Source: Candidatus Oxydemutatoraceae bacterium (GTDB lineage Bacteria > Pseudomonadota > Gammaproteobacteria > Poriferisulfidales > Oxydemutatoraceae). From it: DNA of 64,000 bases. Below, in pieces: positions 25,253 through 62,821 of the stretch (its first letter is position 1; every line of letters starts with the position of its first letter). The notes below the pieces were generated by a model. It did no database searches, was not told the origin of the DNA, and worked only from the letters and a program-made list of their open reading frames with translations. The stretch covers positions 160,001 to 224,000 of the forward strand of contig OZ244717.1 in the NCBI GenBank assembly GCA_965218975.1, given 5' to 3'. The translations under genes were made by a program, and so were the position numbers.

Positions 25253-26367
25253 TGTACGATGTTACCCTAAATGGGATTCTTGAAGGGCTTCGGAGGAAGC
25301 GTTCGGCAGTAACATTCGGATCGGCGCTTTCTGTCCGTTGCCGGCATGAGGACGGTGCAGGGTGAGATGCGCCCGGAAAACCGATCGGTTTTCAGCGGCG
25401 AACGACCCGACAAGGACGTCGGGGCTGGCGCTCATTGACAGAACCCAGTCTCGTCATGGACGAGCAGGGTGAGACGCGCCCGGAAAACCGATCGGTTTTC
25501 AGCGGCGAACGACCCGACAAGGACGTCGGGGCTGGCGTTCATTGACAGAACCAAGTCTCGTCATGGACGACAGACACTTTGCTGAGCATTCACCAACAAA
25601 CTACAAAACGGCTTCATAACCGGTCATTGAATGCTTCCGTATCGGCGAATAGCAGGTTTTCTGCATGATCGATACAATCTTCTTGAACGGTGCGGTTGAA
25701 GCGCTCGATGTGCGCGTTCATTTTTGGACACTTGGGATAGGTCAGCCACTGCTCAATCGCGGGTGATTCCCGGATGAGCCGGGCAAACCTGTCCTTGAAA
25801 CTCACTACCACCATCTGTCAGGGTGAGACGCGCTCGGAAAACCGATCGGTTTTCAGCGGCGAACGACCCGACAAGGACCGTCAGGGCTGGCGCTTATTCG
25901 CAGAACCAAGTCTCGTCACGGACGAGCAGGGTGAGACGCGCCCGGAAAACCGAACGGTTTTCAGCGGCGAACGACCCGACAAGGATGTCGGGGCTGACGC
26001 TCATTGACAGAACCAAGTCTCGTCATGGACGACAGGCACTTTGCCGGGTTGCGGCCAGACCCGCCGACGCCTCTTGCGCAGCGCTTTGCTGCGGTCATGC
26101 AAGGCGCTGAGCCCAGTGCGGCAATAACGTCGGCGCCAGCGGTACAAAGTGCTGCGACCGACCTTAAATGCGTTTAGGGTTACAATCCTCCCAAAATAAC
26201 AGGGCATCGTGTTTCTGTTGAGCCGTTGTGTTCATGAGCCTCTATTTTTGAAGCAAAATTGGCTCATATAGAAACCTTTGATGCGGTGGTGGCCGATGTG
26301 CTGATATTGCATATCGGTCACCTTTTCGAGTTAAGCCGTGAGTCCCATATGTATCTGGTACTATACA
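25253..26367 (-). mobile_element. IS481-like relic A with four nested ~100-bp units
   Basis: TGTA...TACA imperfect terminal repeats; transposase fragments (HTH RSTLYRW; TDGGSEF; NAHIERFNRT); no target duplication seen. Confidence 0.8.
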
Positions 26368-26426
26368 TTGATCAAAACTTCGATAATAAAAAAAGCATTG
26401 GGACATCAAGTGATTAAAGCGTTTCT

Positions 26427-26948
26427 ATGAAAAACCTATCGCGTATTTTCCTGATCGGAGCAATGGGCTGCGGTAAAACTACCGTAGGACAGGCGCTTGC
26501 CAAGCAATTGGGATGGGAATTTATTGACATTGACCGCGTGTGCGAAGCGCATACCGGAAAGAGTATTACGCAAATATTTGCAGATGAGGGAGAAAAAGCT
26601 TTCCGAAAATATGAAGCCGCTCAAATCGCCGAGCGAAGCAGCGGTAATAAAATTGTTCTTGCAACCGGCGGCGGTGCGATATTGATGCCGGAAAATCGCT
26701 ATCATCTACAAACACGCGGCAACGTGATCTTCTTGGATGCCAGCATTGAAACACAGGCTGCTCATATAAAAAACGACAATAGCCGACCATTGCTCGCCAA
26801 CAGCAATCCATATGAGACATTACAGAGACTCTATTGTGAGAGAAAACCTTTGTATCAAAAAATTGCCGATTTTAAAGTGAGTGTTGATCATCAATTACCC
26901 ATACAGATCGCTGATAAAATACTCAGTTTATTACGGCTTGGAACATGA
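26427..26948 (+). CDS. aroK: Shikimate kinase
   Basis: GAMGCGKTT, GEKAFR, TGGG, RPLL. Confidence 0.96.
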   Translation: MKNLSRIFLIGAMGCGKTTVGQALAKQLGWEFIDIDRVCEAHTGKSITQIFADEGEKAFRKYEAAQIAERSSGNKIVLATGGGAILMPENRYHLQTRGNVIFLDASIETQAAHIKNDNSRPLLANSNPYETLQRLYCERKPLYQKIADFKVSVDHQLPIQIADKILSLLRLGT

Positions 26949-28042
26949 TCGACTCATCAATAAAATTGTTAAATTTCGATAGCGGTGACAGCCGCTATCC
27001 GATTTATATCGGGCACGGGTTACTCAAGGAACCTTCTTACTTTGAAGAAATACTACATAATCGCCGCTGCGCCATTGTAACGGATAAACAAGTCGCGTCT
27101 CTATACCTAGCTCAAATCAAGAAAACGCTACCTGTTAAAAACTCGGTTGAAATTGTCCTGCCCGCGGGAGAAACCAGCAAGACGTTTGCGTCTGTTGAAA
27201 ATATTTGCGGCAAACTTCTGCAGAGTAGCATTGATCGCAGTGGTATGTTGATTGCATTGGGCGGCGGTGTGGTAGGTGACATCACCGGGTTTGCCGCTGC
27301 CTGTTATCAACGAGGCGTTGATTTTATTCAACTTCCGACAACCCTGTTGGCACAGGTAGACGCTTCGGTCGGAGGGAAAACCGGGGTGAATCACGTTTTA
27401 GGGAAAAATATGATCGGCGCGTTTCATCAGCCGCGCGCAGTTATAATTGACTTGGAGACACTGAACACATTACCCGCGCGACAGATCGCCGCAGGCACCG
27501 CTGAAATTATTAAATACGGTCTTATTATCGATGCTGGCTTTTTTTCTTGGTTGGAAAAAAACATTACCGAAATTCAACAACTGAAAACACAACCACTCGG
27601 CGAAGCGATTTATCGCTCTTGCGAAATCAAAGCTGAAATCGTCGTACAAGATCAATATGAAAAAACCGGACTGCGAATGTTGCTCAACCTCGGGCATACT
27701 TTCGGACATGCCATTGAAACCGGTTTGGGACATGGTAGTTGGCTGCACGGCGAAGCAGTCGGTTGCGGTATGGCGCTAGCAGCGCAGTTTTCAGAACGAC
27801 GTAATCTCATATCAGCCGACGATACTACTCGTATTATGGCATTGATCCGAAAAGCAAGATTGCCGATTAAATTGCCGGGAAACCTAAATGCACTTGAATT
27901 GACCAAGCTAATGCAACGCGATAAAAAAAATCTGGGCGGCAAGCAACATCTTATTCTATTGAAAAAAATAGGCGAAGCATTTGTTGACAAGCAGGTTCCT
28001 GTCACTGAAATTGAGAGTTTTTTAAGTACTTTGCGCACATAA
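26945..28042 (+). CDS. aroB: 3-dehydroquinate synthase
   Basis: GGGVVGD, DASVGGKT, NLGHTFGHA. Confidence 0.96.
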   Translation: MIDSSIKLLNFDSGDSRYPIYIGHGLLKEPSYFEEILHNRRCAIVTDKQVASLYLAQIKKTLPVKNSVEIVLPAGETSKTFASVENICGKLLQSSIDRSGMLIALGGGVVGDITGFAAACYQRGVDFIQLPTTLLAQVDASVGGKTGVNHVLGKNMIGAFHQPRAVIIDLETLNTLPARQIAAGTAEIIKYGLIIDAGFFSWLEKNITEIQQLKTQPLGEAIYRSCEIKAEIVVQDQYEKTGLRMLLNLGHTFGHAIETGLGHGSWLHGEAVGCGMALAAQFSERRNLISADDTTRIMALIRKARLPIKLPGNLNALELTKLMQRDKKNLGGKQHLILLKKIGEAFVDKQVPVTEIESFLSTLRT

Positions 28043-28170
28043 ATATCCATATCATTTTCTTCGATGTACCTCGTGAAAAACACATCCTAATTGAAGAATA
28101 CCCACAGCAAGAAGCATCGGTGATCCGTTATGCGCATGGTATAATGGGCGTTTATTATAAACCGTATCTA

Positions 28171-31100
28171 ATGAACCAAGCGCCTCATACAAAACTATAT
28201 TCGCCAAAATTTGAAAAAGACAGTTGTGGCTTCGGTCTGATCGCGCAGATGGACGATCAACCCAGCCATGAGTTATTGGAAACAGCAATTCAATCGTTAG
28301 CACGGCTGACTCACCGAGGCGCAATTGATGCCGATGGCAAAACCGGCGACGGATGCGGACTATTGCTGAAGATGCCAAAGGCATATATGCAAACCAAAGC
28401 GGTTGAAGCCGGCATCAAATTGGGCGACCTATTTGCAGTCGGCGCAATATTTCTTAGCCGCGACGAAGCCGCCGCCGCACGCGAGCGGCAAATGCTTGAA
28501 GAAGCGTTGCGCGGCGAACAGCTTGATCCCGCCGGTTGGCGTACTGTTCCGATAAACCTCGAGGTATGCGGTCAAGTCGCATTGGATACTTTACCTAGAA
28601 TTGAGCAAATTTTTGTCAACACCAACGAAACCGATCCGGAAACATTTGAGCGGAAATTATTTATCGCTTCACGTCGAACAGCCTGTATGATCACTTCCGA
28701 TACCAGCACATTTTACATTGCAAGCTTGTCATCTCGCGTTATTTCCTACAAAGGTTTGGTGATGCCGGGAAACCTGCCGATTTTCTACAGGGATTTGAAC
28801 GACAAACTTTTGGCAACTTCAATTTGTGTGTTTCACCAGCGATTTTCCACCAATACATGGCCGCAATGGCGACTTGCACAACCATTTCATTTTCTTGCGC
28901 ACAATGGAGAAATCAACACGATCCAGGGCAACCGTAACTGGGCACGGGCACGCATTTGTAATCTGAAAAGTTCTCTATTGCCTAATCTTACCGAATTTGG
29001 TTCGATTGTCTGCGAAGATGGTTCCGACTCAAGCAGTCTTGATAATATGTTGGAAGTTTTACTTGCCGGAGGGTTGGACATTTTTCATGCCGTACGTTTG
29101 TTAATTCCTCCGGCATGGCAAAACATCAGCCACTTTGACACCGACTTACGCGCATTTTATGAATACAATGCATTACACATGGAACCCTGGGACGGCCCCG
29201 CTGGCATTGTGATGACCGACGGACGTTATGCCGCTTGTGTAATGGACCGCAATGGTTTAAGGCCTGCACGCTATGCGATCACTAAAGATCGCCATATTAT
29301 ACTTGCATCGGAAATCGGAGTGCATGATTACCGTTCGGAAGAAATAGAAACCAAAGGACGTTTGCAGCCCGGAGAAATGATCGCAGTTGATATTGCCACC
29401 GGCAAATTGCTGTTGTCGGAGGATATTAATCATCAGCTCAAACAACGTAAACCTTACCGTGATTGGCTAAATAAAAACTTACTGCGCCTATCTTCATCCG
29501 CCGAAAATAATCAACTGATTAAAAATCCGATGCCAAATGAAGACATGATGACTTATGAAAAAATGTTCGGGGTATCTTCTGAAGAAAAAGAACAGGTTAT
29601 TCGCGTATTAGCGGAAGTAGGGCAAGAAGGTGTCGGCTCAATGGGTGATGATACCCCCTTACCGGTACTTTCAACGCAAACACGTTCGGTGTTTGATAAT
29701 TTCCGCCAGCTATTTGCCCAAGTAACTAACCCGCCCATAGATCCGTTACGTGAACAAATCGTCATGTCGCTTGAAACTTCACTAGGTCCCGAATTGAACC
29801 CTTTTGCGGATATGTGCGACTGTCGGCACATTGTGATTGATTCGCCGGTTTTGTCCGAACAAAAGCTTTCCATGCTGACAGATAGCACTAAAAGCGGCTA
29901 CTTGAGCCGGGTATTTGATTTGAATATTCCGTCGGAAACAAGAATTGAAGACGGCATTCGGACTTTGTGCGACGAAATTACCGTTTCTGTTCGCAACGAG
30001 AACATTACTTTCATCATATTATCGGACTATAAAATTGCGCGAGGGAAAATACCTATACCCGCCCTATTAGCTTGCGGCGCAGCACATCAACAGCTTATTC
30101 GCGAAGGACTGCGCTGCCGAGTCAATATCATTGTCGAAACTGCTACCGCTCGCGATCCTCATCATTTTGCGACTCTAATCGGTCATGGTGCAACTGCGAT
30201 TTTCCCCTATCTCTCATACCATCTATTAGAGAACATGCACCGCACACAAAGTGTCAAAAATGATATCGCTCCGGACACTTTAGCCATTAACTATCGACAA
30301 AGTATAAACAAAGGTTTATATAAAATTATGTCGAAGATGGGTATTTCAACCATCTCAAGCTACCGCAGCGCCGCATTGTTTGAGATTGTCGGATTACATG
30401 ACGAGGTAGTGTCGCTTTGTTTCCCCGATACAAGCAATCGAATACAAGGCGCTAAGTTTGAGGATTTGCGTGAAGATCAGTTGCGTTTAGCATGGCAAGC
30501 TTGGAATAAACAGACATCCATTCAACAAGGCGGTCTTCTGAAATACATTCATAACGGCGAATACCATGCTTATAATCCCGATGTTGTTCAAAGCCTACAT
30601 AGGGCGGTTAAGAGCGGCAGCTACGAAGATTATAAAGTATTCGCCGATCACGTTAATCACCGCCAGCCAATGGTATTGCGTGACCTACTAAATCTTAAAG
30701 ATACAAACCGATCAATTTCGTTGGATGCAGTCGAGCCTATTGAAAACATACTGCCACGATTCAATTCCGCAGGCATGTCGCTTGGCGCTTTATCACCCGA
30801 TGCACATGAGGTATTGGCACAAGCGATGAACATCATCGGAGCACGCTCCAATTCCGGCGAGGGCGGCGAAGATTCGGCACGCTACAACACCGACAAGTCA
30901 TCAAAAATTAAACAAGTCGCATCCGGCAGATTTGGTGTTACCCCTCATTATTTAATGAATGCCGAAGTTTTACAAATTAAAATTGCGCAAGGAGCAAAGC
31001 CGGGAGAAGGCGGACAACTACCTGGCCATAAAGTCGACAAAATGATCGCCAAACTACGTTACGCAAAAGAAGGAGTCGCATTAATCTCACCGCCCCCTCA

Positions 31101-32634: not shown

Positions 32635-32637
32635 TGA

Positions 32638-36281: not shown

Positions 36282-36358
36282 GGGCCTGTAGCTCAGTCGG
36301 TCAGAGCAGGGGACTCATAATCCTTTGGTCGCAGGTTCGAATCCTGCCGGGCCCACCA
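36282..36358 (+). tRNA. tRNA with CAT anticodon, probably tRNA-Ile2
   Basis: GGGCCTG/CGGGCCC acceptor stem plus ACCA, CTCATAA loop; position after rpoD is typical of Ile2. Confidence 0.9.
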
Positions 36359-36432
36359 TATTTATCAATAAGATACAAATTAACTGTTTTCAATCCTTGT
36401 GTCATTCGGTACACCTGCACTGGAATTGATGC

Positions 36433-37471
36433 ATGGCAACCATAACAAAAACCCCTTCGAACACTTGGAAAGCGATCATCCGCAAGCGTGGCTGGCCGAC
36501 CACGATAAAGACGTTCCGCACCAAGCGCGATGCCCGGACTGGGCGCGTCGCACCGAGGATGACATGGTGCGCTGCGTATACATCAACCGTGCCGGTTCGG
36601 ACCGTATTCTGCTGAAACATGCACTGGACCGTTACCTGAGCGAAGTCTCCTCCACCAAGTGCGAGAACACGGCGAATGTCGAGCGACACAAAGCCAAGGC
36701 GCTGAAAGCGAGCTTGGAGGTCTACAGCCTAGCGGCCATTACTCCGGACCTGATCGCCCGGTACCGGGATCAACGCCTGGAGGCCAGCAAGGCCGCCAAC
36801 ACAGTGCGCCTGGAACTGTCCTTGCCCTCGCATCTTTTCACCATCGCCATTAAGGAATGGCGGGTGGGGCTTTTCTATAATCCGGTAGCCAACGTCCGCA
36901 AGCTGGCACCGGCGAAGGGCCGGGATCAAAGGTTACGCACGGATGAGGAACAATCCCTGCTCAGGGCCCTGTGACCAGCACTCCAACCCCATGCTTGGCT
37001 GGCGGCCCGGATTGCCCTGTACACCGGTATGCGGGCCGGGGAGATCAAGTCCTTGACCCGACAGCAGGTGGATTTGCAAAAGCCACCGTGCACCTGACTG
37101 AGACCAAGAACGGCTCTGCGAGAACTGTCCCCCTCACCCGCAAGGCCACGGATGTTTTTCATACGGCACTCAGTCATCCCGTGCGCCATTTCGATACGGA
37201 CCTCATCTTCTTTGGCGAACCCGGACGAGACGGCACACGCCGTCCCTATGAATTTCGTCCCGCCTGGGCCCGCACCCTGAAAAGGGCCGGCATCAAAGGC
37301 CTGCGCTTTCATGATCTTCGCCACGAGGCGGTCTCGCGCCTGGTCGAGGCGGGCCTTGGTGATCAGGAGGTCTCTGCAATCTCCGGCCACAAATCCATGC
37401 AGATGCTCAAGCGCTATACGCATCTGCGTGCGGAGGACCTGGTGGGGCGCCTGGATCAATTAATGGGTTGA
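36433..37471 (+). pseudogene. Tyrosine integrase, frameshifted
   Basis: MATITK...RKRGWP start, TGMR, TKNG, HDLRH and GHKSMQMLKRYTH spread over several frames. Confidence 0.85.
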
Positions 37472-39349: not shown

Positions 39350-39883
39350 TGTACAGTGCCAGATACATGTGGGAATCACCCGTGATTGAGCAGTGGCTGA
39401 CCTATCCCAAGTGTCCAAAAATGAACGCGCACATTGAGCGCTTCAACCGTACCGTCCAAGAAGATTGTATCGATCACGCGGAAGACCTGCTATTCACTGA
39501 TACGGAAGCATTTGATGACCAGCTATGAAACCGTTTTGTGTTTGTTGCCGGATTTTCGGCGGATTGTGCCGGATTGTCGGCAAAGTGCCTGTCATCCATG
39601 ACGCGACTGGGTTCTGTCAACAAGCTCCAGCCCCGACGTCCTTGTCGGGTCGTTCACCGCTGAAAACCAATTGGTTTTCCGGGCGCGTCTCACCCATGAC
39701 GAGACTTGGTTCTGTCAATGAGCACCAGCCCCGACATCCCTGTTGGGTCGTTCACCGCTGAAAACCGATCGGTTTTCCGGGCGCGTCTCACCCGGCAACG
39801 GACAGAAAGCACCGACCCGAATGTTACTGCCGAACGCTTCCCCAGAAGCTCTTCAAGAATCCCATTTAGGGTGGCATCGTACA
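39350..39883 (+). mobile_element. IS481-like relic B (opposite orientation) with two nested units
   Basis: TGTACAGTGCCAGATACAT ... GGGTGGCATCGTACA ends; NAHIERFNRT fragment. Confidence 0.8.
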
Positions 39884-43264: not shown

Positions 43265-43340
43265 ATAAAGTTACCCGCTTACAAGTGGTGTGTAGATAAA
43301 GGACGTACTATGCAACCGTCTTGGATTAATGTCAAGTGAG

Positions 43341-44113
43341 TGTACGATGCCACCCTAAATGGGATTTTTGAAGGGCTTCGAGGGAAGCGTTCGGCAGTAA
43401 CATTCGGATCGGTGCTTTCTGTCCGTTACCGGCATGAGGACGGTGCAGGGTGAGACACGCCTGGAAAACCGACTGGTTTTCAGCGGCGAACGACCCGACA
43501 AGGACGTCGGGGCTGGGGCTCATTGACAGCACGAAGTTTCGTCATGAACGACATGCACTTTGCTAATAATCCAGCACAATCCGCCGACAACCCTGCACCA
43601 AACACAAAACGGGTGAGACGTGCCCGGAAAACCAATTGGTTTTCAGCGGCGAACGACCCAACAAGGACGTCGGGGCTGGGGTTCATTGACAGAACCAAGT
43701 CTCGTCATGGGTGAGACGCGCCCGGAAAACTACACAGTTTTCAGCGGGTTTTTCAGCGGCGAACGACCCGACAGGGACGTCGGGGCTGGGGCTTGTTGAC
43801 AGAACTAAGTCGCGTCATGGACGACAGGCACTTTGCCGACAACCCCGCACAATCCGCCGACAACCTCGCACAATCCGCCGACAACCCACCAACAAACACA
43901 GAACGGGGGAGACGCGCCCGGAAAACCAATTGGTTTTCAGCGGCGAACGACCCGACAAGGACGTCGGGGCTGGGGTTCATTGACAGAACCAAGTCTCGTC
44001 ATGGACGACAGGCACTTTGCCGACAACCCACCAACAAACACAGAACGCTTTCATCACCGGCCATTGAATGCTTCCATATCGGTGAATAGCAGGTTTTCTG
44101 CATAATCAATATA
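43341..44113 (-). mobile_element. IS481-like relic C, one end only, four nested units
   Basis: TGTACGATGCCACC end; units at 43450, 43613, 43711, 43907; right boundary approximate. Confidence 0.78.
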
Positions 44114-44116
44114 ACA

Positions 44117-44644
44117 TTGCACCTGTTGGCAGGGCTTGATTTGCCCGACGCCGGCACGATTATTGCCGATGGTGTCGTGATTGATGCTATGGACGAGAAT
44201 GCGCGTTGTTTATGGCGTCAGGAAAAACTCGGGTTTGTCTATCAGTTTTATCATCTGCCGGCAGAATTTTCTCTGCTCAAAAATGTAATGATGCCCGTTT
44301 GGATTGCCGGGACCCGGGACCCGGAAGTACGCAGCCGAGCGGTTGATTTATTACAGGCGGTAGACTTGGGCCGGCGGCTCAACCATAAGCCTGCCGAGTT
44401 ATCTGGCGGCGAACAACAACGTGTCGCAATCTGTCGCGCCTTAGTCACCAAACCCAAACTCGTACTCGCGGATGAACCGACAGGCAATCTTGACGTGCAC
44501 ACTGCCGCCTTTGTCGCAGATGTTCTGCTCAGGCTCAATCAACAGAAAGGGGCAACGCTTATTGTTGCGACTCACGATTTAGAGTTCGCGCAACGTTTTG
44601 ATGATGTCTATCGTTTGCGCGAAGGCGTGTTGAATCCGGTTTGA
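44117..44644 (+). pseudogene. 5'-truncated LolD-like ABC ATPase
   Basis: Begins LHLLAGLD just after the missing Walker A; GFVYQFYHL, LSGGEQQRVA, ADEPTGNLD. Confidence 0.8.
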
Positions 44645-44770: not shown

Positions 44771-45934
44771 TCAGCAATTCTTAAAGTTCTTTTTGACGCA
44801 TTCGCGGGCAAGCGCTTGCGCTTTAGAGATATCGGCAGGGGCCATTTGTTCTTCCAATTCATCTCTTAACTTTGCTCCTTCTTCACTCCCGTTTTCGGAA
44901 GCGATGCTTGCCCACATATAAGCATAGACATTATCCTTTGTTAATCCCTTGCCAAGAGCATACGCCACGCCCAGTTTATATTGCGTATCTGCATTTCCCT
45001 GTTCGGCAGCGCGTCTGAACCACTCCACTGCTTTTTGGTCATCCTGAGGAACGCCATGTCCCTCGGCATACGCCACGCCTAGATTGTATTGCGCATCTGC
45101 ATTTCCCTGTTCGGCAGCGCGTCTGAACCACTCCGTTGCTTTCTGATCATCCTGAGAAACACCGCGTCCCGCGGCATACGCCACGCCTAGGTAAAATTGC
45201 GCATCTGCATTTCCCTGTTCGGCAGCGCGTCTGAACCACTCCACTGCTTTTTGGTCATCCTGAGGAACGCCGCGTCCCGCGGCATACGCCACGCCTAGAT
45301 TATATTGCGTATCTGCATTTCCCTGTTCAGCAGCGCGTCTGAACCACTCCACTGCTTTTTGGTCATCCTGAGGAACGCCATGTCCCTCGGCATACGCTAC
45401 GCCTAGATTGTATTGCGCATCTGCATTTCCCTGTTCGGCAGCAAGTCTGAACCACTCCGTTGCCTTCTGATCATCCTGAGAAATACCGCGCCCCGCGGCA
45501 TACGCCACGCCCAGATTAGATTGTGCACTTGCATGCCCCTGTTCGGCAGCATGTCTGAACCACTCCACTGCTTTTTGGTCATCCTGAGGAACACCGCGTC
45601 CCGTGGCATACGCCACGCCTAGATTAGATTGCGCATTTGCATTTCCCTGCTCGGCAGCGCGTCTGTACCGTTTCACTGATTGCTGATCGTTCTGGGAAAT
45701 ATCGAGTCTACTCTCGTCCTTGGGTTTGTCCTTGGGTTTGTCCTCGGATTTTATTGAGAAGCTTTTTGTTGAGATGAAGGTTTCTATTTTTATGGACTTG
45801 GCCTTTATTGAGAGTGAGAAGGAGGACGGTCTTGCTTCTCCAGAATCAGTAGATCGGGATATCCATCGCTTCAATAATGTAGGCAATAAAACAGAAATGA
45901 AGGACAAAAAAGCTTTCTTTATTATATTGTACAT
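44771..45934 (-). CDS. Sel1-like repeat protein (7 repeats)
   Basis: 36-aa repeats AQxNLGVAYAxGxGVxQDDQKAxEWFRxAAEQG; native start probably ATG 45934, ORF stays open into IS relic D. Confidence 0.88.
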   Translation of the reverse strand: MYNIIKKAFLSFISVLLPTLLKRWISRSTDSGEARPSSFSLSIKAKSIKIETFISTKSFSIKSEDKPKDKPKDESRLDISQNDQQSVKRYRRAAEQGNANAQSNLGVAYATGRGVPQDDQKAVEWFRHAAEQGHASAQSNLGVAYAAGRGISQDDQKATEWFRLAAEQGNADAQYNLGVAYAEGHGVPQDDQKAVEWFRRAAEQGNADTQYNLGVAYAAGRGVPQDDQKAVEWFRRAAEQGNADAQFYLGVAYAAGRGVSQDDQKATEWFRRAAEQGNADAQYNLGVAYAEGHGVPQDDQKAVEWFRRAAEQGNADTQYKLGVAYALGKGLTKDNVYAYMWASIASENGSEEGAKLRDELEEQMAPADISKAQALARECVKKNFKNC

Positions 45935-45952
45935 GTTCAGATTCACACTGGA

Positions 45953-46816
45953 TGTACAATACCACCCCAGTGGGATTCTTGCAGAGCTTTGTGGGAAGCA
46001 TTCGGCAACAACATTCGGATCGGTGCTTGCTGTCCGTTGCCGGGTGAGACGCGCCTGGAAAACCGATCGGTTTTCAGCGGCGAACGACCCGACAAAGACG
46101 TCGGGGCTGGCGCTCATTGACAGAACCAGGTCTCGTCATGGACGACAGGCACTTTGCTGAGCATTTACCAACAAACACAAAACGGTTTCATCAGCTCAAA
46201 AACTTTACTGCTGCCGAAATTCTGCCCGGCGCAGGCGTTTGATTTCACGCTGAATCGGTTGTGGCCAGATCCGCCGACATCTCTTACGCGGCGCCGGCCG
46301 CGGGCATCGAGGTGCTGCAGGATACGGCGCATCTTATCGGGGGCTGCGGCGATGATGCGCCCGATAGTCGAGACGCTGGGGGTGGTCAGGCCGTGGCGCT
46401 CGCACCACGGCTCAAGCAACTTCTGCACCGGCTGTTTACCTAAGTTCGGATACCGCTCGCGCAGACGGCGGATTGCTTGCACCAAACCGGATGGGCACCG
46501 CGCCTGCCGTCGGCGATGCGGTGCGGTCGAACGCGGCGCCAGTGCCGCTACGTTGTGTCCGGCTTCCCTCAAGGTCTGCCGCCACCGATACAAGGTACGG
46601 CGACTGACTTTGAATGCATCGCAGGCAGCGGCTATGCCATGGTTTTCCTGGAAGGTGAGAATTTTGAGTCGTTGTTTTGCATCGTAAGTCATAGTATCCC
46701 AACTATGCCCGATTTTAGCGACCCGGTAAAACCCCCGGATTCGATAGCCTATGTGTTGGATTTGCAAGGCTGCTTCTCCTGTCGGCAGGAGTGCCAAATG
46801 TTTCTGAGCTTATGCA
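45953..46816 (-). mobile_element. IS481-like relic D, chimera of two related IS, one nested unit
   Basis: Family-1 end and fragment to ~46293, then a divergent transposase N-terminus (SRRTLYRW, PSVSTIGR) ending in a TGCATAAGCTCAGAAACAT-type end. Confidence 0.75.
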
Positions 46817-50167: not shown

Positions 50168-50297
50168 ATGTCGCATCTTGATCATTTAAAGCGGTTTTAT
50201 GCCCTTCTTGATCTGCTCGAGAAACGACTCGGTGGCGCTCGCCAACTGTCCGGTTGCTCTTGTAGTATGTCATGGCCGAAGCGCGGTGTCTATTTCT
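50168..50297 (+). pseudogene. N-terminus of a hypothetical protein truncated by IS relic E
   Basis: MSHLDHLKRFYALLDLLEKRLGGARQL...WPKRGVYF stops at the IS end. Confidence 0.5.
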
Positions 50298-51469
50298 TGT
50301 ACGATGCCACCCTAAAAGGGATTCTTGAAGGGCTTCGGGGAAAGCGTTCGGCAGTAACATTTGAATCGGTGCTTTCTGTCCGTTGCCGACATGAGGGCGG
50401 TGCAGGGTGAGACGCGCCCGGAAAACCGATCGGTTTTCAACGGCGAACGACCCGACAAGGACGTCGGGGCTGGCGCTCATTGACAGAACCAAATCTCGTC
50501 ATGGACGACAGGCACTTTGCTGAGCATTCACCAACAAACACAAAACGGCTTCATAACCGATCATTGAATGCTTCCGTATCGGTAAATAGCAAGTTTTCCG
50601 CATGATCAATACAATCCTCCTGGACGATACGATTGAAGCGCTCGATGTGCGCGTTCATTTTTGGACACTTGGGATAGGTCAGCCACTGCTCAATCACGGG
50701 TGATTCCCGGATGAGCCGGGCAAACTATCCTTGAAACTCACTCCCGCCGTCCGTCAGGGTGAGACGCGCTCGGAAAACCGATCGGTTTTCAGCGGCTAAC
50801 GACCCGACAAGGACGTCGGGGCTGGCGCTCATTGACAGAACCAAGTCTCGTCATGGACGACAAGCACTTTGCCAGGTTGCGGCAGTACCGACACTATACA
50901 CGCCAGGGTCAGGCGCAGGAATGCGGCAGCACTACGGCTGTTACAGCGGTTGGTTGCCACTGCTATTGCCATTCGGGTATAGACATTGATGCCCGTTAAG
51001 ACGTAGCGGCGCACTCCGTGCTGATAACACACAGTATCCAGGGCGATGCAATGCCCCGGATACTGTGCTTTGAAGTGTTTCGGCTTGCGTGCCCTGCAAC
51101 GGCGCTTGAACAGTCGTTTTGTTTGTCCTTTGGCATTCAGCCGCTGCGGAATACAGCGCATTTTATCCGGCGCATCTGCGGTCAGGCGCGCAATTGTGCG
51201 GACACTTGGGCAGAGCAGCTGGTGGCGATGGCAAAACGGTTTCATCAGCTCAAAGACTTTATTGCTGCCGAGATTCGCCAAAGCTGTCAAAATTCTGCCC
51301 GGCGTAGGCGTTTGATTTCATGCTGAATCGCCTGCGGCCAGATCCGCCGACGCCTCTTGCGCGGCGCTTTGCCGCGGTCATACAAGGCGCTGAGTCCAGT
51401 GCGGCGATAACGTCTGCGCCAGCGGTACAAAGTGCTGCGACCGACCTTGAATGCGTTCGGGGGTTACAA
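50298..51469 (-). mobile_element. IS481-like relic E with two nested units
   Basis: TGTACGATGCCACC end; fragments with PGHCIALDTV, TDGGSEF, ERFNR and HTH; second end missing. Confidence 0.8.
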
Positions 51470-51608
51470 CCGGAGAGGAGTTGATATGTTCCTTGCTAAA
51501 TTAAGATATTTCTCCTCCGCCTAGCATGATCGGAAGATCTTTTGCAAGGGCATCGCGGGGGCAACTACGTACTGAACGCACATAGTCCGTGTGCAGCCGT
51601 TACATCTT

Positions 51609-55970: not shown

Positions 55971-56357
55971 TTAGAAGCAGCGGATTTCAGCTTCGGCCTG
56001 GGATTTACGATATCTGTCAATCATTATGTTAGCCCATTCCGAGTTACGGAATATATCAACTCGGTCACTAGAAAGTTGTCTCATTCTGAGCACTGTTTCC
56101 GCTTCGACATACTCATCATACGTTATCGTTTCGGCAATAACGTCAATACTGCATGAACATTTTTCCAGCATGACCTCGGTTTGATCATTACTGCTCATAC
56201 AGGCAAATACATACTCCGCAAGCGCTCTGGTCGGAAAGTCATTGCCGGCAGCGGCAGGCTGACAGAAAATAAGCATCAGAACCGTTAAACTAACACTGCG
56301 TTTGAAGCAGACTACTTGTTTCATTTCCAACATCGCTATAACCAAACTATTCGACAA
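55971..56357 (-). CDS. Exported Cys-containing hypothetical protein of the xox cluster
   Basis: Signal peptide, NDFPT..EYVFACM, KCSCSID. Confidence 0.7.
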   Translation of the reverse strand: MSNSLVIAMLEMKQVVCFKRSVSLTVLMLIFCQPAAAGNDFPTRALAEYVFACMSSNDQTEVMLEKCSCSIDVIAETITYDEYVEAETVLRMRQLSSDRVDIFRNSEWANIMIDRYRKSQAEAEIRCF

Positions 56358-57635: not shown

Positions 57636-57769
57636 GGGATTATGAATAATAATGTGTTTTATCCATTTATCTTCTATGCCGTTACTCTGCAGCGGCGGCT
57701 CATGCCAACAAATGTCGGTCCTGATTCCATAGGCTGAGTACGTAGGTGTGGAACCATAGGAAACAGCTT

Positions 57770-58600
57770 TCATTCTGTTGTTACCAAAGGCACATTATAC
57801 TGTGACAACACCGTGTGTATTTTTTCTTTGTTGCGGTGCAAAAATGTATTCAGCCGCCGCTTCCATTTTACCTCACCGAATCTGACTCCTAAGGTCACAC
57901 TATAAATCATACGATGCTTATCCGAATGGTCCGCTAGCAGCGGCACTACTTTGAGTTGATTGTCATAGATTTTATTCAGATAACCTACAAGCGGCCCCCA
58001 GAGAATAGCGCAATCAAGTTTTCCCGACAACAAATCTTTTACGATCTGTTGTGCGGGAGCATCCACCCGGGTATCAACCACCAAATGGTACGAAGCAACT
58101 TGCTCCATCAGGCCTTTTTCAATCAACAAACCTGTCGGCGGTGTCCCGGCGATCAGACCAATCCGCATGTTTTTGTCTTTTAATCGAGGGTTTGACAAAG
58201 AACGCAGTTCGTAGCCAGCATCCGCCAGGTAAACCAGCGAAAAAACCGAAGAATAATAGGGGTTGGTATTCAGCAGCGTCTCGTTTCCGGATGACACTCC
58301 CATAATGAGGTCACATCTTCTGGCTTGCAGGGTAGTGCGGACAAACCCCATGCTTTGCGGAAACCAATAATAGGAAAGCGGCACATTAAGGTCTGCGGCA
58401 ATAAACTCGGCTATCTTATTTTCAAACCCCTGTTGCGCCCTGTTGGAATACGGCAGATTGTTAGGGTCTGAGCAAACACGCAAAGCGGTCCGTTCCCGCG
58501 GCTCGGTACTATTATCAGCGGCATTCGGCGTTGGTGAAACGCAAAGTAAAATAACCAGACATATCAACCCTAAACAACTCTCATTATTCCGGATGTTCAA
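57770..58600 (-). CDS. xoxJ: XoxJ/MxaJ periplasmic binding protein
   Basis: LRVCSDPNNLPYSN, GFENKIA, WGP. Confidence 0.9.
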   Translation of the reverse strand: MNIRNNESCLGLICLVILLCVSPTPNAADNSTEPRERTALRVCSDPNNLPYSNRAQQGFENKIAEFIAADLNVPLSYYWFPQSMGFVRTTLQARRCDLIMGVSSGNETLLNTNPYYSSVFSLVYLADAGYELRSLSNPRLKDKNMRIGLIAGTPPTGLLIEKGLMEQVASYHLVVDTRVDAPAQQIVKDLLSGKLDCAILWGPLVGYLNKIYDNQLKVVPLLADHSDKHRMIYSVTLGVRFGEVKWKRRLNTFLHRNKEKIHTVLSQYNVPLVTTE

Positions 58601-58618
58601 GGCAATAAGATATCGGAT

Positions 58619-59086
58619 TTAATTACCGAAGCAGGCATTATCGCGTTCGATTGCCTCCTTTGGTTTGGCCACGCGGTCCGGACGTCCCGGAGCAACAGCT
58701 CCGTCCGCTCGTGCAACAAGATAAGCATAGATATCATCCAGGAAACACATCACGTTTAAGTTGGTTGCGAACCCGGGCATAACGTTCTGCGTAGCGGTGC
58801 CGACGTTCACTCTGCCATTGACAACAATCTCCAAAAATTTTCCGTAGCCGAGAGTTTTCACGGATTCCAGCAGGTTCGGAGCAAAAGAACTGCCCATCCC
58901 GGCCGGCCCATGGCATACGTGACATTCGGAATGATAACGGCGGAAGCCGCTAAAGGTGTACCAATCAACCTTACCGTCTGCGGTAATCCGATAGGGTTTA
59001 TCCTGACCGTCTCCGTTACTAGCAATGGCGACAGACACGAAGGTTAAAAGAGCAAAGCTCAGTAACGCAAAAAACAGCTCTTTCAT
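58619..59086 (-). CDS. xoxG: XoxG cytochrome c
   Basis: VDWYTFSGFRRYHSECHVCHG; follows xoxF. Confidence 0.9.
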   Translation of the reverse strand: MKELFFALLSFALLTFVSVAIASNGDGQDKPYRITADGKVDWYTFSGFRRYHSECHVCHGPAGMGSSFAPNLLESVKTLGYGKFLEIVVNGRVNVGTATQNVMPGFATNLNVMCFLDDIYAYLVARADGAVAPGRPDRVAKPKEAIERDNACFGN

Positions 59087-59136
59087 GGAAACTTCTTCCT
59101 CCCTCAAGTCAAATCGGTCAATTTAACCAAGCGGTT

Positions 59137-59184
59137 AAAAAAAACCTGCATCCGAAACAGAGACGAACTCTACCCCGGATGCAG
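59137..59184 (-). terminator. Hairpin plus T run between xoxF and xoxG
   Basis: CTGCATCCG / CGGATGCAG stem then 8 T on the minus strand. Confidence 0.6.
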
Positions 59185-59199
59185 AATCTTAACTCTCAA

Positions 59200-61014
59200 C
59201 TACAGTGAGAAGACGAATAAAGTGCCTCCTAAACGAGTATAGTTTTCAAGATGACGATAACCTCCGACAGCGCCCAAACCATCACGGTCTCCCGTTAAGC
59301 CTGCGGCCATACCGATACCGGCCCAACCACCAATGCCTGACAGAATAGCAATATACTGCTTCCCACCGTGCATGTAGGTCGTGACGTTGCCGATAATCCC
59401 GGAGGGTGTCTTGAAGCGATAAAGCTCTTTGCCTGTCTTGTGATCGACGGCTTTTAAGTAACCTTCCAAAGTGCCATAAAACACGATGCCACCACCGGTT
59501 GCTAAAGCACCGCTCCAAACTGAAAACTTCTCGTCAATTGCCCAGGCTTCTTTGCCGGTACCGGCATTCCAGGCAATAAACCGACCCATGTCCGGGCCCC
59601 TGTCAGTGCGGCCAGGAGCCGTCGGGGCGGGAAACATATCCAGGTTCGCCCCCACATACGGCTGACCCGCAGTGTAGCTAACCCTGAAAGGCTCGTAGTT
59701 CATGCACACATGGTTAGTCGGAACATAGAACAGATTAGTCATCGGCGAGAAGGAAGCCGGTTGCTGGTCTTTGGTGCCCAACGCAGCCGGACAAATATCT
59801 TTTGATAACACATCCTCACCGTTGTACTCGGTTCTGTACTTGTTCACCATCATTGGCCGTCCGGTTTTCATATCGATGCCCGTCGCCCAGTTGACCACGT
59901 CATCGTACTTCTCCGCAACCAACAGTTCACCTGAGACTCGGTCCAGAGTATAACCAAACCCGTTACGGTCGAAATGCACCACGGTTTTGCGCATCTTGCC
60001 ATTGACCGGAATATCAGCGAGAATCATCTCATTGATTCCGTCATAATCCCACTCGTCATGTGGCGTCATTTGATAGACCCACTTGGCGAAGCCGGAATCG
60101 GCATCACGCGCAAAAATGGTCATGGACCAACGGTTGTCACCCGGGCGTTGCTTCGGATTCCACGTGCTTGGATTACCTGAGCCGTAATAGACCAGATTCA
60201 GGTCGGGGTCGTAGGAATACCAACCCCAAGTGGTACCGCCGCCGATCTTCCATTGATCGCCTTCCCAGGTATCAGTGCCCGAACCCTTACCGACGGACTT
60301 CCCAAGATGCGTGGTCTTGGGTCCCATCAACGTATCCGAATCCGGACCCATTGAGTAGCCACGCCAGACACGCTTGCCGGAATTAACGTCGTATGCGGTT
60401 AGATGGCCGCGAACACCGAATTCACCGCCGCTAATACCGACATAAACTTTATCCTTGACAACCATGGGTGCCGATGTACCCGTTTCCCCCTTGGAAATAT
60501 CACCGTTGGATACACTCCACATTTTTTTGCCGGTTTTCGCATCCAAGGCAACCAACGTCGCATCCGCTTGATACAGGAAGATTTTGCCGTCGCTGTATGC
60601 AACACCGCGGTTAACCGTGTCACAGCACATCACCGGTATAGTGGCCGGATTCTGCTTGGGTTCATATTCCCATACGATCCTTTGGTTATCACTCAGGTCC
60701 AGTGCGAATACCTTGTTAGGAAAAGGTGTATGCACATACATCATGTCACCGATAATCAAAGGGCCACCTTCGTGACCGCGAAGAACACCAGTCGAGAATG
60801 TCCATGCAACCTTTAAGTCTTTAACATTACCGGAATTGATCTGCTTCAGTTCGGAATATCGATGATTGGCGTAGTTACCTGTAGGCATCACCCATTGATT
60901 CGGGTCTTGCGACATTTTCATCAACATGGTGTTCGCCTGCACACCCGCCATTCCGACAAGGCACATCATCCCGACAGTCAAGACCGAGATTAAATGTTTA
61001 GGGTTTTTTAACAT
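59200..61014 (-). CDS. xoxF: Lanthanide-dependent methanol dehydrogenase
   Basis: VMCCD vicinal disulfide, EWDYDGINE with the extra Asp, Trp docking motifs. Confidence 0.93.
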
Positions 61015-61228
61015 ATAAAGTCCCTCCTTTAAATTTGTTAATTTGTTAATCCAGTGATTTTGTCAACAGCCCAAAAACGACCGGCTTTCCAACGAGCAAT
61101 GTCGGTTTTGAAATCCGAAGCCTTGCTGCTTGATTGCCATCATTCAAAATAACAACCTTAAGAGTGCCGTCTATCTATTCTGGGCTATGCATTAGTATAC
61201 TATACTTTTAAATGTAGTGTATAGGTTG

Positions 61229-62821
61229 TGTACGATGCCACCCTAGATGCCACCCTAAATGGGATTTTTGAAGGGCTTCGGGGGAAGCGTTCGGCAGTAA
61301 CATTCGGATCGGTGCTTTCTGTCCGTTGCCGGCATGAGGACGGTGCAGGGTGAGACGCGCTCGGAAAACCGATCGGTTTTCAGCGGCGAACGACCCGACA
61401 AGGACGTCGGGGCTGGTGCTCATTGACAGAACCAAGTCTCGTCATGGGTGAGACGCGCCCGGAAAACCAATTGGTTTTCAGCGGTGAACGACCCGACAAG
61501 GACGTCGGGGCTGGCGCTTGTTGACAGAACCCAGTCGCGTCATGGATGACAGGCACTTTGCCGACAATCCGGCACAATCCGCCGACAACACGGCAACAAA
61601 CACAAAACGGTTTCATAACTGGTCATTGAATGCTTCCGTATCGGCGAATAGCAGGTCTTCCGCATGATTGATACAATATCTTCTTGGACGGTGCGGTTGA
61701 AGCGCTTGATGTGCGCGTTCATTTTTGGACACTTGGGATAGGTCAGCCACTGCTCAATCACGGGTGATTCCCGGATGAGCCGGGCAAACTGTCCTTGAAA
61801 CTCACTACCGCCGTCCGTCAGGGTGAGACGCGCCCGGAAAACCGATCGGTTTTCAGCGGCGAACGACCCGACAAGGATGTCGGGGCTGAGGCTTGTTGAC
61901 AGAACCCAGTCGCGTCATGGGTGAGACGCGCCCGGAAAACCAATTGGTTTTCAGCGGTGAACGACCCGACAAGGATGTCGGGGCTGGGGCTTGTTGACAG
62001 AACCCAGTCGCGTCATGGATGACAGGCACTTTGCCGACAATCCGGCACAATCCGCCGACAACACGGCAACAAACACAAAACGGTTTCATCAGCTCAAAGA
62101 TTTTACTGCTGCCGAGATTCGCCAAAGCTGCCGAAATTCTGCCCGGCGTAGGGTGAGACGCGCTCGGAAAACCAATTGGTTTTCAGCGGTGAACGACCCG
62201 ACAAGGATGTCGGGGCTGAGGCTTGTTGACAGAACCCAGTCGCGTCATGGATGACAGGCACTTTGCCGACAATCCGGCACAATCCGCCGACAACACGGCA
62301 ACAAACACAAAACGGTTTCATCAGCTCAAAGATTTTACTGCTGCCGAGATTCGCCAAAGCTGCCGAAATTCTGCCCGGCGTAGGGTGAGACGCGCCCGGA
62401 AAACCAATTGGTTTTCAGCGGTGAACGACCCGACAAGGACGTCGGGGCTGGAGCTTGTTGACAGAACCCAGTCGCGTCATGGACGACAGGCACTTTGCCG
62501 ACAATCCGGCACAATCCGCCGACGCCTCTTGCGCGGCGCTTTGCCGCGGTCATGCAAGGCGCTGAGTCCAGTGCGGCGATAACGTCGGCGCCAGCGGTAC
62601 AAAGTACTGCGACCAACCTTGAATGCGTTTAGGGTTACAATCCTCCCAAAATAACAGGGTATCGTGTTTCTGTTGAGCCGTTGTGTTCATAATAGCCTCT
62701 ATTTTTGAAGCAAAATGGGCTCATATAGAAACCTTTGATGCGGTGGCCGATGTGCTGATATTGCATATCAGTCACCTTTTCGAGTCGTGCCGTGAATCCC
62801 ATATGTATCTGGCACTATACA
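61229..62821 (-). mobile_element. IS481-like relic F with six nested units
   Basis: Both ends present (TGTACGATGCC ... GGCACTATACA); fragmented transposase. Confidence 0.82.
61921..62524. repeat. 232-bp tandem repeat, about 2.6 copies
   Basis: Starts at 61921, 62153, 62385; each full copy is unit + tail + transposase fragment. Confidence 0.9.

Follow-up and report, generated by a model that had tools for sequence, protein, structure and literature searches.

The stretch analyzed here (the window) is a 64,000-nt piece of the genome of Candidatus Oxydemutatoraceae bacterium (GCA_965218975.1, contig OZ244717.1, positions 160,001-224,000), a sponge-symbiont-like organism whose genome is a single 2.08-Mb contig. 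It contains relics of an IS481-like insertion sequence family, IS-A, of which no intact copy is left in the genome, and these relics are interrupted by arrays of a short repeat unit (Table 1). All 11 arrays of the window (19 cores) have IS-A DNA on their left (flank copy number 28-80), in line with the initial annotation, which had placed every copy within IS481-like relics. The relic at 25253 has its transposase on the minus strand and retains open reading frame fragments (FKDRFARLIRES...ERFNRTVQED...FNDRL); contigs from public sequencing runs break at 25253-25280 and 26339-26367. The stretch of IS from s2 to r4' is absent at array 2. In array 4, full periods of core plus tail (163 and 196 nt) are joined after caaaacGG and cagaacGG. 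The relic with arrays 6 and 7 keeps uninterrupted native copies of s3 (gggcagagcagctgg...caaaacggtttcatc) and s4 (cgtaGGcgtttgatttc), and the cores at 61921, 62153, and 62385 make up a 232-bp repeat (2.6 copies, 98% matches).

Table 1. IS-A relics and repeat arrays of the window (s, left joint; r, right joint)
Feature	Position	Strand	Description
IS-A relic, IS481-like	25253-26367	-	tips TGTACGATG... and ...CTATACA, 1115 nt apart
Array 1	25362-25614	+	cores 25362-25459 and 25469-25566 (107-nt period), tail 25567-25614; left s1 (ggtgcaGG), right r1
Array 2	25823-26039	+	cores 25823-25921 and 25931-26028, short tail 26029-26039; left s2 (ctgtcaGG), right r4'-like
Array 3	39528-39791	-	core starts 39791 and 39693 (98-nt period), tail 39595-39528; left s0 (ttgccGG), right r1
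Array 4	43450-44051	+	four cores (43450, 43613, 43711, 43907); left s1, right r1
Array 5	46044-46177	+	single core + 36-nt tail; left s0, right r3; ∼600 nt of IS deleted
IS-A relic with arrays 6 and 7	50290-51470	-	
Array 6	50407-50551	+	single core + 47-nt tail; s1-r1 replacement (simple), separating ...FNDRLW from LHRPH
Array 7	50759-50873	+	single core + 17-nt tail; simple s2-r2 replacement, immediately upstream of LTDGGSEF motif
IS-A relic with arrays 8-11	61229-62821	-	tip motifs 1593 nt apart
Array 8	61350-61613	+	two cores (98-nt period) + 68-nt tail; s1-r1
Array 9	61823-62075	+	two cores + 57-nt tail; s2-r3, catalytic-core half deleted
Arrays 10 and 11	62153-62513	+	cores 62153 and 62385, both after cgtaGG (s4)

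The unit is 98 bases long, hairpin-rich, and present in ∼315 copies in this genome. A search for its start (three or fewer mismatches) returned 19 matches in the window, versus none in each of 100 shuffles; genome-wide, there are 304 starts. The 19 are those reported initially, the minus-strand pair (39693 and 39791) included. The 5' end is sharp: of the 340 blastn pieces, 315 have their start at unit base 1-3, and 298 run as far as base 98. The other 25 pieces are mostly self-matches of the first hairpin on the reverse strand, and ∼5 are genuinely 5'-truncated. The core carries conserved hairpin-forming palindromes and reads ..CATGG at its 3' end. Its two ends can be paired in an imperfect closing stem of 8 nt (GACGCG/CGCGTC), beyond which there is no clear terminal inverted repeat; in the 98-nt period, this stem has GG on either side. 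Folding z scores of the unit (-1.0 to -1.7) are no better than those of shuffled sequence. A length of merely ∼100 bp, as first described, understates the element, given that each terminal core is followed by a ragged, A/C-rich tail, ∼11-95 nt long, with a short repeat of variable number, (CAATCCGSC)n. A small noncoding module, made of a core (often several in tandem) and a tail cut at differing lengths, has the unit as its conserved head. Tandem periods are 98, 107, 152-163, 197, 232, and 302 nt, every one of them ending in GG.

The unit is not native to the IS481-like transposase genes that it interrupts, because transposase copies without it read through (...AVLLQPVKYILTDGGSEF and FNDRLWEYLAWYKLHRPH) and residues 54-120 of an uninterrupted copy match positions 4-67 of the 67 in the rve_3 profile without a gap. 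This bears out the earlier view that the unit splits the transposase. The transposase is found in 10 of 18 genomes of the same family, and its full-length homologs in relatives (353-390 aa) all lack the unit. The unit itself was found in none of the 52 other genomes of the order, and no relatives of it were detected in the collections searched. Within this genome it is joined to at least three IS481-like lineages.

GG lies directly before 287 of the 304 unit starts, the joint reading GG/GTGAGAC (the slash marks the joint). When the 20-nt left flanks are clustered, 30 of 35 clusters end in GG (a hand count of the cluster list), and what the ∼30 different flanks all have in common is only (CA)GG. 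The proposal of one fixed end placed after GG, made from the window alone, is thus upheld by the genome-wide tabulation. The seven junction types listed for the window were all recovered: tgcaGG (4), gtcaGG (3), tcatGG (4), tgccGG (2), cgtaGG (2), aacGG (2), and (ga)gcaGG (2). At least nine left joints fall within IS-A alone (V82-V834).

In native, uninterrupted targets, GG is present at the joint in all four copies of s4 and in most of the rows listed for s0, as well as at ACATTCGG, at three unit-internal joints, and in a fic-like gene. Five junction types had been said to have the GG in the target already, and they do (tgccGGcatg, cgtaGGcgttt, unit-internal tcatGG, aacGG, and acaGG). For the other two types, copies without the unit at other places in the genome show GG in two of five cases at s1 and in two of four at s2, and the sole native copy of s3 reads GA (GG in 0/1). 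Because native s1, s2, and s3 are not all GG, some of the GG may be contributed by the element. Outside any IS, in the fic-like open reading frame, a 302-bp repeat (×3) begins at core base 1, joined after GCGCAGG, and the only letters shared at the joint are GGG; this is a de novo joint outside an IS. Several left joints show 6-9 nt of imperfect similarity to the end of the preceding core or to another left flank, and 8 nt of flank homology is a sufficient explanation for the V702 joint, so the independent end-joining events must number fewer than 30. Overall, a first base joined in this way to GG points to an unusual one-ended DNA rearrangement.

The right joints are of a different kind. They fall at variable tail lengths (∼11 to 95 nt), and the far side is closed through microhomology of 5-10 nt (e.g., CAAAACGG, ATCCGCCGAC, and TTTCA). 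At two of the five main right joints (r1 and r4'), the native target has no GG before the joint, and at r4 the element side lacks it as well. The claim that the target never resumes after the unit holds only in part: 53 of the 184 arrays (28 + 4 + 11 + 10) have the same IS continuing 8-35 nt onward. Each of the simple sites (s1-r1, s2-r2, s3-r3, and s4-r4/r4') has lost 8-35 nt of native sequence, so no insertion is conservative, and target-site duplication is absent from all of them, as had been observed. Tabulation of left against right joints also yields deletion classes (s1-r3 in 17 arrays, s2-r3 in 14) and back-jump classes (s2-r1 in five, s4/s4v-r3 in nine). That the same DNA follows many cores is largely the expected product of homologous recombination between units, as seen both in this tabulation and in the 232-bp repeat of the window.

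Genome-wide, 164 of the 184 arrays share one orientation and are located in IS-A DNA. Three are in the orientation opposite to an IS481-like fragment, and only three have unique DNA on both sides. Core identity is 0.912 (∼91%), compared with 0.897-0.936 for IS segments; the unit copies are as old as the IS relics, among whose 34 tip pairs five still have perfect 5-bp direct repeats. Identical composite architectures recur, with core-to-core spacings of 352 nt at 10 loci and of 373 nt at six, and from this recurrence we infer that passive spread, with IS copies as carriers and through unit-unit recombination, is the probable origin of most copies. The age, the location, and the recurring architectures together do not support the free transposon seeking out an IS that was pictured at first. 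Passive spread does not account for the site-specific 5' end and the new local joints that it has formed with GG time and again.

The window had shown no enzyme capable of making such an end, and extending the search to the whole genome did not change this. There were no matches to the serine recombinase domain (Resolvase, PF00239; control positive in 12 of 14 genomes), the Y1 HUH domain (Y1_Tnp, PF01797), or the IS110 DEDD transposase (PF01548), no candidates for the reverse transcriptase domain RVT_1 (control positive in three of 14 genomes), and no TnpB or Tn3 domains. Profiles for IS91-type HUH Y2 enzymes (PF04986, NF033538) did not match in this genome, with controls that were silent in every genome. 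A search against Rfam gave nothing at the gathering threshold, and its sole hit by E-value (narK, 14.8 bits, E = 4.9) is attributable to chance.

Several known systems resemble the unit in part. As described in excerpts from PMC6188088, IS607 has GG at its termini and at every target, prefers (G)GG, and has neither target duplication nor terminal inverted repeats; to that extent the unit, with GG on both flanks of its core, a GG/G joint, and no target duplication, is similar. However, it shows no conservative insertion, only its left end is exact, it is 98-195 nt long and geneless, and its genome lacks a Resolvase domain. One-ended rolling-circle transposition of IS801/IS91, as described in PMC3189936, involves one constant end, with the other end varying and halting at a short motif similar to the target; in this family (IS91, IS801, ISCR), miniature derivatives share the constant end, neighboring DNA is taken along, and target duplication is absent. 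The unit likewise has a constant origin end, and its tandem periods all stop at GG, a short motif like that of its targets. In contrast to the GAAC/CAAG of that family, its target or stop motif is NGG; moreover, its insertions lose 8-35 nt of target with microhomology at the closed side, and its events are local and IS-confined.

Comparable features occur in smaller elements. Miniatures of IS200/IS605 and REP/RAYT elements are small and hairpin-rich, insert 3' of a short motif without duplication and in a strand-specific manner, and are often clustered. The unit has these features in common with them, but it is inserted imprecisely and inside IS genes rather than between genes, in a genome without Y1_Tnp, and at targets that share only GG and not a fixed motif of 4-5 nt. 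Bacterial MITEs (Correia, RUP, ERIC) are short, structured, high-copy, noncoding, and sometimes gene-interrupting, as is the unit, which however has no terminal inverted repeat beyond ∼8 nt, no duplication, one exact end, and so few copies in unique DNA. A DDE-type MITE was rejected, given the imperfect 8-nt stem and the lack of a fixed-length duplication (the 5-bp repeats belong to the IS-A relics). Also rejected was a target or cargo of an IS110 bridge RNA, there being no DEDD transposase and no long specific target among the ∼30 left flanks. Of the three mechanisms suggested at first, IS110-type recombination is the least likely, since nothing but GG is common to the targets; one-ended transfer of the HUH type and priming by a nucleic acid with a fixed end are still candidates. 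Lastly, palindrome slippage and microhomology template switching give local, orientation-keeping deletions and tandem duplications with 2-10 nt of microhomology. The events at the unit are similarly local, in the same orientation, and of both types, but a single exact end at base 1 is not predicted by such processes.

The explanation we favor, with slightly less than even confidence, is an old, lineage-specific, non-autonomous element, the copies of which are mostly passive and the own activity of which is local and one-ended at GG/GTGAGAC. IS copies that already carried the unit would have spread, presumably mobilized in trans, and would later have been reshuffled by unit-unit and short-repeat recombination. 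A defined DNA end (or template end) at GG/GTGAGAC would repeatedly join GG in nearby DNA. The products would be adjacent deletions, tandem duplications whose first base is exactly core base 1, and small "replacement" insertions; these last would lose 8-35 nt of target and be closed at the far side through 5-10 nt of microhomology. As the mechanism, we consider it most likely that replicative copying follows once a strand-specific nick or template end has formed at the 5' boundary, which would resemble rolling-circle one-ended transfer or break-induced/template-switch repair. For the putative agent, we would give roughly equal weight to a lost nickase or recombinase encoded by the element and to replication and repair by the host at the folded core, and about half as much to anything else. 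Against this explanation stand the lack of an end-making enzyme in the genome (among the Y1 HUH, reverse transcriptase, serine, IS110, TnpB, and Tn3 types searched) and the base-1 landing site, which simple fork pausing at a hairpin would not by itself predict. The native copies without GG at s1, s2, and s3, the similarities at several left joints (with V702 explained by flank homology), and the three arrays of opposite orientation count against it as well. Bolder, and in our view unlikely, is the proposal that this is a new kind of non-autonomous element with one defined end, where a nick or template end at GG/GTGAGAC primes copying into any nearby GG by way of a putative, possibly host, enzyme. 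Such an element would reside in IS481-like insertion sequences as a hyperparasite, disrupt the transposase genes, and drive the break-up of these sequences as the symbiont genome is reduced.

It could instead be that there is no special end, and that a satellite-like hairpin repeat entered the IS once or a few times, with all variety arising from homologous recombination between units, slippage at the folded core, and recombination at chance short similarities. Events of this sort did occur in the same relics independently of the unit (AGGCGCAGG joins s4 to V∼515 in at least 15 copies, and GGTTGCGGC joins s2 to s4), and the 232-bp repeat of the window is the exact product of unequal exchange between cores. 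Left joints that look like the core 3' end or the tail start (CGTCA(T)GG, GACGAGCAGG), the flank-homology event at V702, and the GG on both sides of the closing stem also speak for it. We nevertheless think it rather improbable. Some 25 chance shared 6-mers would be expected between a 1.1-kb IS and the 93 interior core positions (our estimate, not a computed value), yet the left joints are ∼30 classes at base 1, versus ∼5 truncated cores. One exact and one ragged end are not predicted, and the fic-like repeat starts exactly at base 1 with no more than GGG in common.

The possibility that the unit is a trans-acting, non-autonomous transposon actively targeting IS481-like elements, with its enzyme since lost or encoded elsewhere (IS91-like HUH, IS607-like serine recombinase, or similar), is one we doubt. 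The GG overlap without duplication or inverted terminal repeats is as in IS607, and the constant and variable ends are as in IS801/IS91 (in the excerpts of PMC6188088 and PMC3189936, respectively). Tandem periods that all end in GG and the joining to several IS481-like lineages agree with it too, and an external origin would be consistent with the unit being absent from the 52 further genomes of the order. However, a rule that asks only for GG cannot produce such a concentration in IS-A in one orientation, with so few arrays in unique DNA. The copies are old, simple insertions are never conservative, GG is missing at r1, r4', and r4 as detailed above, and the genome has no Resolvase, Y1_Tnp, IS110, RVT_1, TnpB, or Tn3 domain.

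In target-primed reverse transcription, one end is exact and the other ragged and closed by microhomology, with loss of target. The ends of the unit and its target loss have this pattern, and its variable, A/C-rich (CAATCCGSC)n tail and concatemers of several periods could suit a retro-element, in which a reverse transcriptase, primed by the 3'-OH of a GG or jumping at the template end, copies a short structured RNA that has one fixed end, and the host closes the other junction as for SINEs and LINEs. Considering that RVT_1 has no candidates in the genome, that Rfam offers only the chance narK hit, and that folding is like that of shuffled sequence, we regard this as very improbable. That the unit is native to the intact IS, or its arrays assembly artifacts, would agree with its near confinement to the IS but is hardly credible in view of uninterrupted sites that match the family profile, unit-free homologs in relatives, the single-contig genome, and unit-bearing contigs in public runs of at least two studies, although these contigs end at IS edges and so do not confirm array lengths.

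After bacteria have settled in a host, their insertion sequences first proliferate and then decay, a loss for which drift is mostly held responsible. In the present genome, a small, structured repeat with one-ended, GG-anchored joining has broken into an IS family at recurrent sites, and no intact copy of that family is left. If a dedicated or host enzyme makes its end, the repeat would offer a compact natural system in which DNA is copied from one end, and would illustrate how a parasite's own parasite shapes the reduction of a genome. If only recombination of hairpin repeats is at work, the ∼30 joint classes and 184 arrays of one genome would be a clean natural record of microhomology-mediated rearrangement.

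The genome consists of a single contig of 2,081,000 nt with a G+C content of 47.7%. Its glutamate-synthase-like gene is 67% identical to that of the nearest named relatives, chromosomes of "Candidatus Porisulfidus" and "Candidatus Oxydemutatoraceae" assembled from metagenomes. According to a genome note, the name occurs among sponge-associated microbes; nothing was found to indicate a pathogen. The unit, a hairpin-rich repeat whose 98-nt core starts with GTGAGAC, is present in many copies. Its 21-nt start occurs 304 times genome-wide, and the 19 copies that the initial annotation reported in the window were all recovered there, compared with none in each of 100 shuffles. The two bases preceding the start are GG in 287 of the 304 cases, so the joining after GG noticed in the window holds for the whole genome. 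The claim of a fixed 5′ end fares equally well: a blastn search with one core returned 340 pieces, 315 of which begin at base 1–3 and 298 of which end at base 98. The others are mostly reverse-strand self-matches of the palindromic hairpin, with only about five genuinely 5′-truncated cores. Filtering leaves 317 cores in 184 arrays, of which 99 contain one core, 56 two, 19 three, and 10 more than three, with head-to-tail periods of 97–99 nt (n = 84), 106–108 nt (n = 32) and, more rarely, 152–163 nt.

The last core of every array leads into an A/C-rich tail, which begins with A(C/T)GACAGGCACTTTGC, continues through one to four CAATCCG(G/C)C-like motifs, and then reads ...CAAACACAAAACGG. Because nearly all of the 180 matches to the tail start are preceded by a core end, the tail does not occur alone. 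Three junction types, the most common ones, lie within this module (..GTCATGG for the 98-nt period, ..ACGAGCAGG for the 107-nt period, and ..CAAAACGG for the 152–163-nt period). Within the core there are two conserved hairpin-forming palindromes, GAAAACCGATCGGTTTTC and CCCGAC-AAGGAC-GTCGGG, along with a short closing stem. Most predicted stem pairs are kept in 91–100% of 245 distinct cores. A single core folds no better than shuffled sequence (z −1.0 to −1.7), and compensatory (double) changes number 0–5 per pair. The hairpins are thus strongly conserved, but with so few of these changes, selection on the structure is not proven. Some cores outside the window (genome 405.4, 416.8, 476.8, and 712.7 kb) contain a second, tiny palindrome of ∼26 nt (TGTCTGCGTGC..CACAGGCAGG) within the loop of hairpin 1 or of hairpin 2, and at 476.8 kb this palindrome is central in a long perfect foldback of two core 5′ ends.

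The usual surroundings of the unit are relics of an IS481-like insertion sequence, here IS-A, the transposase of which runs antisense to the unit. We count ∼80–88 left and ∼50 right ends of IS-A in the genome, and the relics range from 378 to 2012 bp. A 157-aa fragment of the transposase has 77 matches in this genome, none full-length; open frames of 353–390 aa (44–51% identity) are present in 10 of 18 genomes of the same family. The inverted repeats of these intact relatives were inspected and yielded nothing informative. Exact 5-bp direct repeats surround 5 of 34 paired IS-A tips (e.g., genome 485028, 1959012, 402518, 837248, and 823431), and thus IS-A made 5-bp target duplications. Importantly, uninterrupted copies of the unit-bearing sites exist, reading ...AVLLQPVKYILTDGGSEF... 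and ...FNDRLWEYLAWYKLHRPH..., and the latter matches Pfam rve_3 without a gap (positions 4–67 of 67). Sequence comparison thus identifies the unit as an insertion rather than a native part of the IS, as the initial annotation had proposed. Units are also found in a second IS481-like lineage (..SDNGSEF..WWTYPKSPKMN..) and in a third.

To locate the joints, we placed the array flanks on four natural IS-A pieces via numeric offsets, with no joined sequence constructed (see table). Clustering of the 20-nt left flanks gives 35 groups, 30 with a terminal GG and ∼18 with a terminal CAGG. A native GG lies exactly at the joint for s4 (4/4 copies), s0 (most of the copies listed), ACATTCGG, three unit-internal joints, and a fic-like gene, but in only 2/5 native copies for s1, 2/4 for s2, and 0/1 for s3. 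The 2-nt overlap, whether a target requirement or microhomology with the GG(G) tip, therefore has good though not absolute support.

Joints between the unit and IS-A, and other loci. V numbers are positions along IS-A; left joints lead from IS DNA to unit base 1, and right joints from the tail to IS DNA.
Feature	Position	Strand	Arrays or description
Left joint s0	V155		11 arrays
Left joint s1	V172		54 arrays
Left joint s2	V400		27 arrays
Left joint s3	V∼742		19 arrays
Left joint s4	V834		8 arrays
Left joint s4v (s4 variant flank)			∼20 arrays
Rarer left joints	V82–V149		V82 found in one of the placements only
Right joint r1	V195		43 arrays
Right joint r2	V∼401		6 arrays
Right joint r3	V758		66 arrays
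Right joint r4′	V846		21 arrays
Right joint r4	V868		20 arrays
302-bp triplication (×3)	genome 1034700–1035800	minus	first 38 nt of fic-like ORF and upstream region
Island L115	genome 148500–154500		3.3 kb, between inverted copies of a 105-nt IS481-like end (TGTATAG...)

In 53 of the 184 arrays the same IS resumes shortly beyond the left joint (s1–r1, 28; s2–r2, 4; s3–r3, 11; s4 or s4v–r4, 10), with 8–35 nt of native sequence replaced in each such pair. At every right joint, the tail and the target share 5–10 nt of partly imperfect microhomology (CAAAACGG at r3, ATCCGCCGAC at r4, TTTCA at r4′, TTT(G/A)CCGG at r2, and AAA(T)AC at r1). Among the other arrays are deletions (s1–r3, 17; s2–r3, 14) and back-jumps, that is, duplications (s2–r1, 5; s4 or s4v–r3, 9; s4v–r1, 2), both of which we read as the outcome of recombination between units at different sites. 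An example of unit–unit recombination is the 232-bp repeat at window positions 61919–62523 (2.6 copies, 98% matches). Internal rearrangements that do not involve the unit also occur in IS-A relics at short direct repeats (AGGCGCAGG, in at least 15 copies, and GGTTGCGGC; e.g., genome 77068, 485924, and 1501077), and thus short-homology recombination is frequent in these relics. Three arrays (genome 326541, 1216698, and 1751524) have in common a joint after cctatcggcagg, and their tails enter an N-terminal IS481-like fragment (GLSSLHDRSRTPRKRRR) that lies in sense orientation, the reverse of what is usual.

It was suggested initially that the unit is a one-ended, non-autonomous element that parasitises the IS. 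The foreign origin and the fixed, GG-joined end stand; the part that needs revision is how the copies multiplied. IS-A flanks lie in one orientation in 164 of the 184 arrays (153 clean and 11 with an extra 33–37-nt reverse match), with only three in the opposite orientation and 17 lacking an IS-A flank match. Unique DNA adjoins both sides in only three of the 184. The spacing from an s1 array to an s2 array is recurrent (352 nt at 10 loci and 373 nt at six). Together with the 5-bp repeats at the IS tips, these patterns suggest that most copies spread inside IS copies, not via jumps of the unit itself. Because units at s1 and s2 break the transposase gene, such IS copies would have been mobilised in trans. 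The mean identity of cores (0.912, 80 sampled) is similar to that of IS-A segments (0.897–0.936), and therefore units and relics are of the same age. Nearest-neighbour cores belong to the same class at a frequency of 0.38, versus 0.21 at random, and the figure for within 2.5 kb is 0.18. The sense strand of the unit is lagging in 116 arrays and leading in 68, a weak bias among non-independent arrays that tracks IS orientation; replication-strand bias was rejected as an explanation.

What remains to be explained is the left end itself. About 30 classes of left joint meet the unit at base 1, compared with about five truncated cores, and the other end is ragged. We estimate that the 6-mers which a 1.1-kb IS shares by chance with the interior of the core would make ∼25 interior joints possible. 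Within the first 110 nt of IS-A, the left joints follow one another in a nested series (V82, seen in one placement only, then 105, 130, 149, 155, and 172) that resembles adjacent deletions from a transposon end. At the fic-like locus, each 302-bp repeat opens with a 3′-truncated core beside a solo IS-A end, and the repeat starts exactly at core base 1, after GCGCAGG, within the unique fic-like reading frame. Repeats 1 and 2 differ at eight positions, seven of them in the core part, which hints at a different donor core or later conversion. From the joint classes at base 1, the ragged other end, the nested series, and this triplication, we conclude that a defined end at GG/GTGAGAC was repeatedly joined to a nearby GG, and that the other side was closed by host-type microhomology.

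Two known systems come close. IS607-family transposons follow a GG rule and have neither target duplication nor terminal inverted repeats (PMC6188088); the unit shares these traits, but its insertions are never conservative and the genome lacks a serine recombinase. In the one-ended transposition of IS91/IS801, one end is constant and the other varies, stopping where a target-like motif occurs (PMC3189936). The unit is alike in both respects and differs in that the motif is another one, target sequence is lost, and the events stay local. Searches for an IS91 transposase gave no match in the genome, and the controls were likewise silent. The initial remark that no matching enzyme is encoded in the window extends to the whole genome, in which no Resolvase, Y1_Tnp, IS110 DEDD, RVT_1, TnpB zinc-ribbon, or Tn3 DDE domain was found. 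The tyrosine recombinases comprise XerD, XerC, two truncated P4-like integrases, and one broken integrase. The last of these lies in the window (36282–37432), where a tRNA-Met (36282) is followed by two Phage_integrase segments separated by a single TGA; an integrated element probably left this remnant.

Several other readings were discarded. The inverted repeat GGGTGAGACGC..CGGAAAAC resembles Tn3 repeats; a transposase and 5-bp duplications at the unit are both missing. A spliceosomal or group II intron (given the CAGG^GTGAG...CAG^G appearance) conflicts with the antisense orientation to the transposase and with the lack of exact exon continuity at any site. The unit is not a known RNA or tRNA-like gene, as a search of the window against Rfam had no hit at the gathering threshold (the sole E-value hit in 43300–44200 was narK, 14.8 bits, E 4.9) and ARAGORN finds only the tRNA-Met. 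A Type IIS restriction reading, based on CGTCTC within the first 8 nt, fails because the rest of the genome shows no avoidance of this site (observed/expected 1.07).

Relatives of the unit were sought by blastn in 40 related genomes and with a covariance model in 52 other genomes of the order, with no hits in either set. An exact 28-mer had no match in genome, metagenome, or viral contig collections, "distant" blastn found none in plasmids or phages, and a literature search with the terms used here found no published description. The unit is present in eight public runs from four studies, no RNA run among them; contigs from four public runs break at IS edges, and array lengths, circles, and molecule ends are not visible in them.

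Several other loci deserve mention. The flanks of island L115, the layout of which looks like a composite transposon, also carry diverged unit arrays (GTGAGCC/GTGAGGC), and its cargo comprises an MNT/HepT pair, an HNH_2 endonuclease at genome 151.0–151.6 kb, and an M78-peptidase-like gene. A 108-bp tandem repeat on the minus strand of the window (44771–46117, 6.6 copies) corresponds to a gene for a Sel1-repeat protein (Pfam Sel1, E 1.6e-83). An IS-A relic adjoins the 5′ end of this gene, which has no relation to the unit. All-against-all ORF clustering is dominated by unit-encoded peptides and by a repeat protein of ∼19,500 codons, a single adhesin-like open frame with internal repeats (genome 928220–986875).

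The interest of the finding is limited by the age of the copies, the missing enzyme, and the uncultured host. We assign the unit to no family. In its behaviour it comes closest to a one-ended replicative element, but host replication and repair at a folded repeat may drive it.
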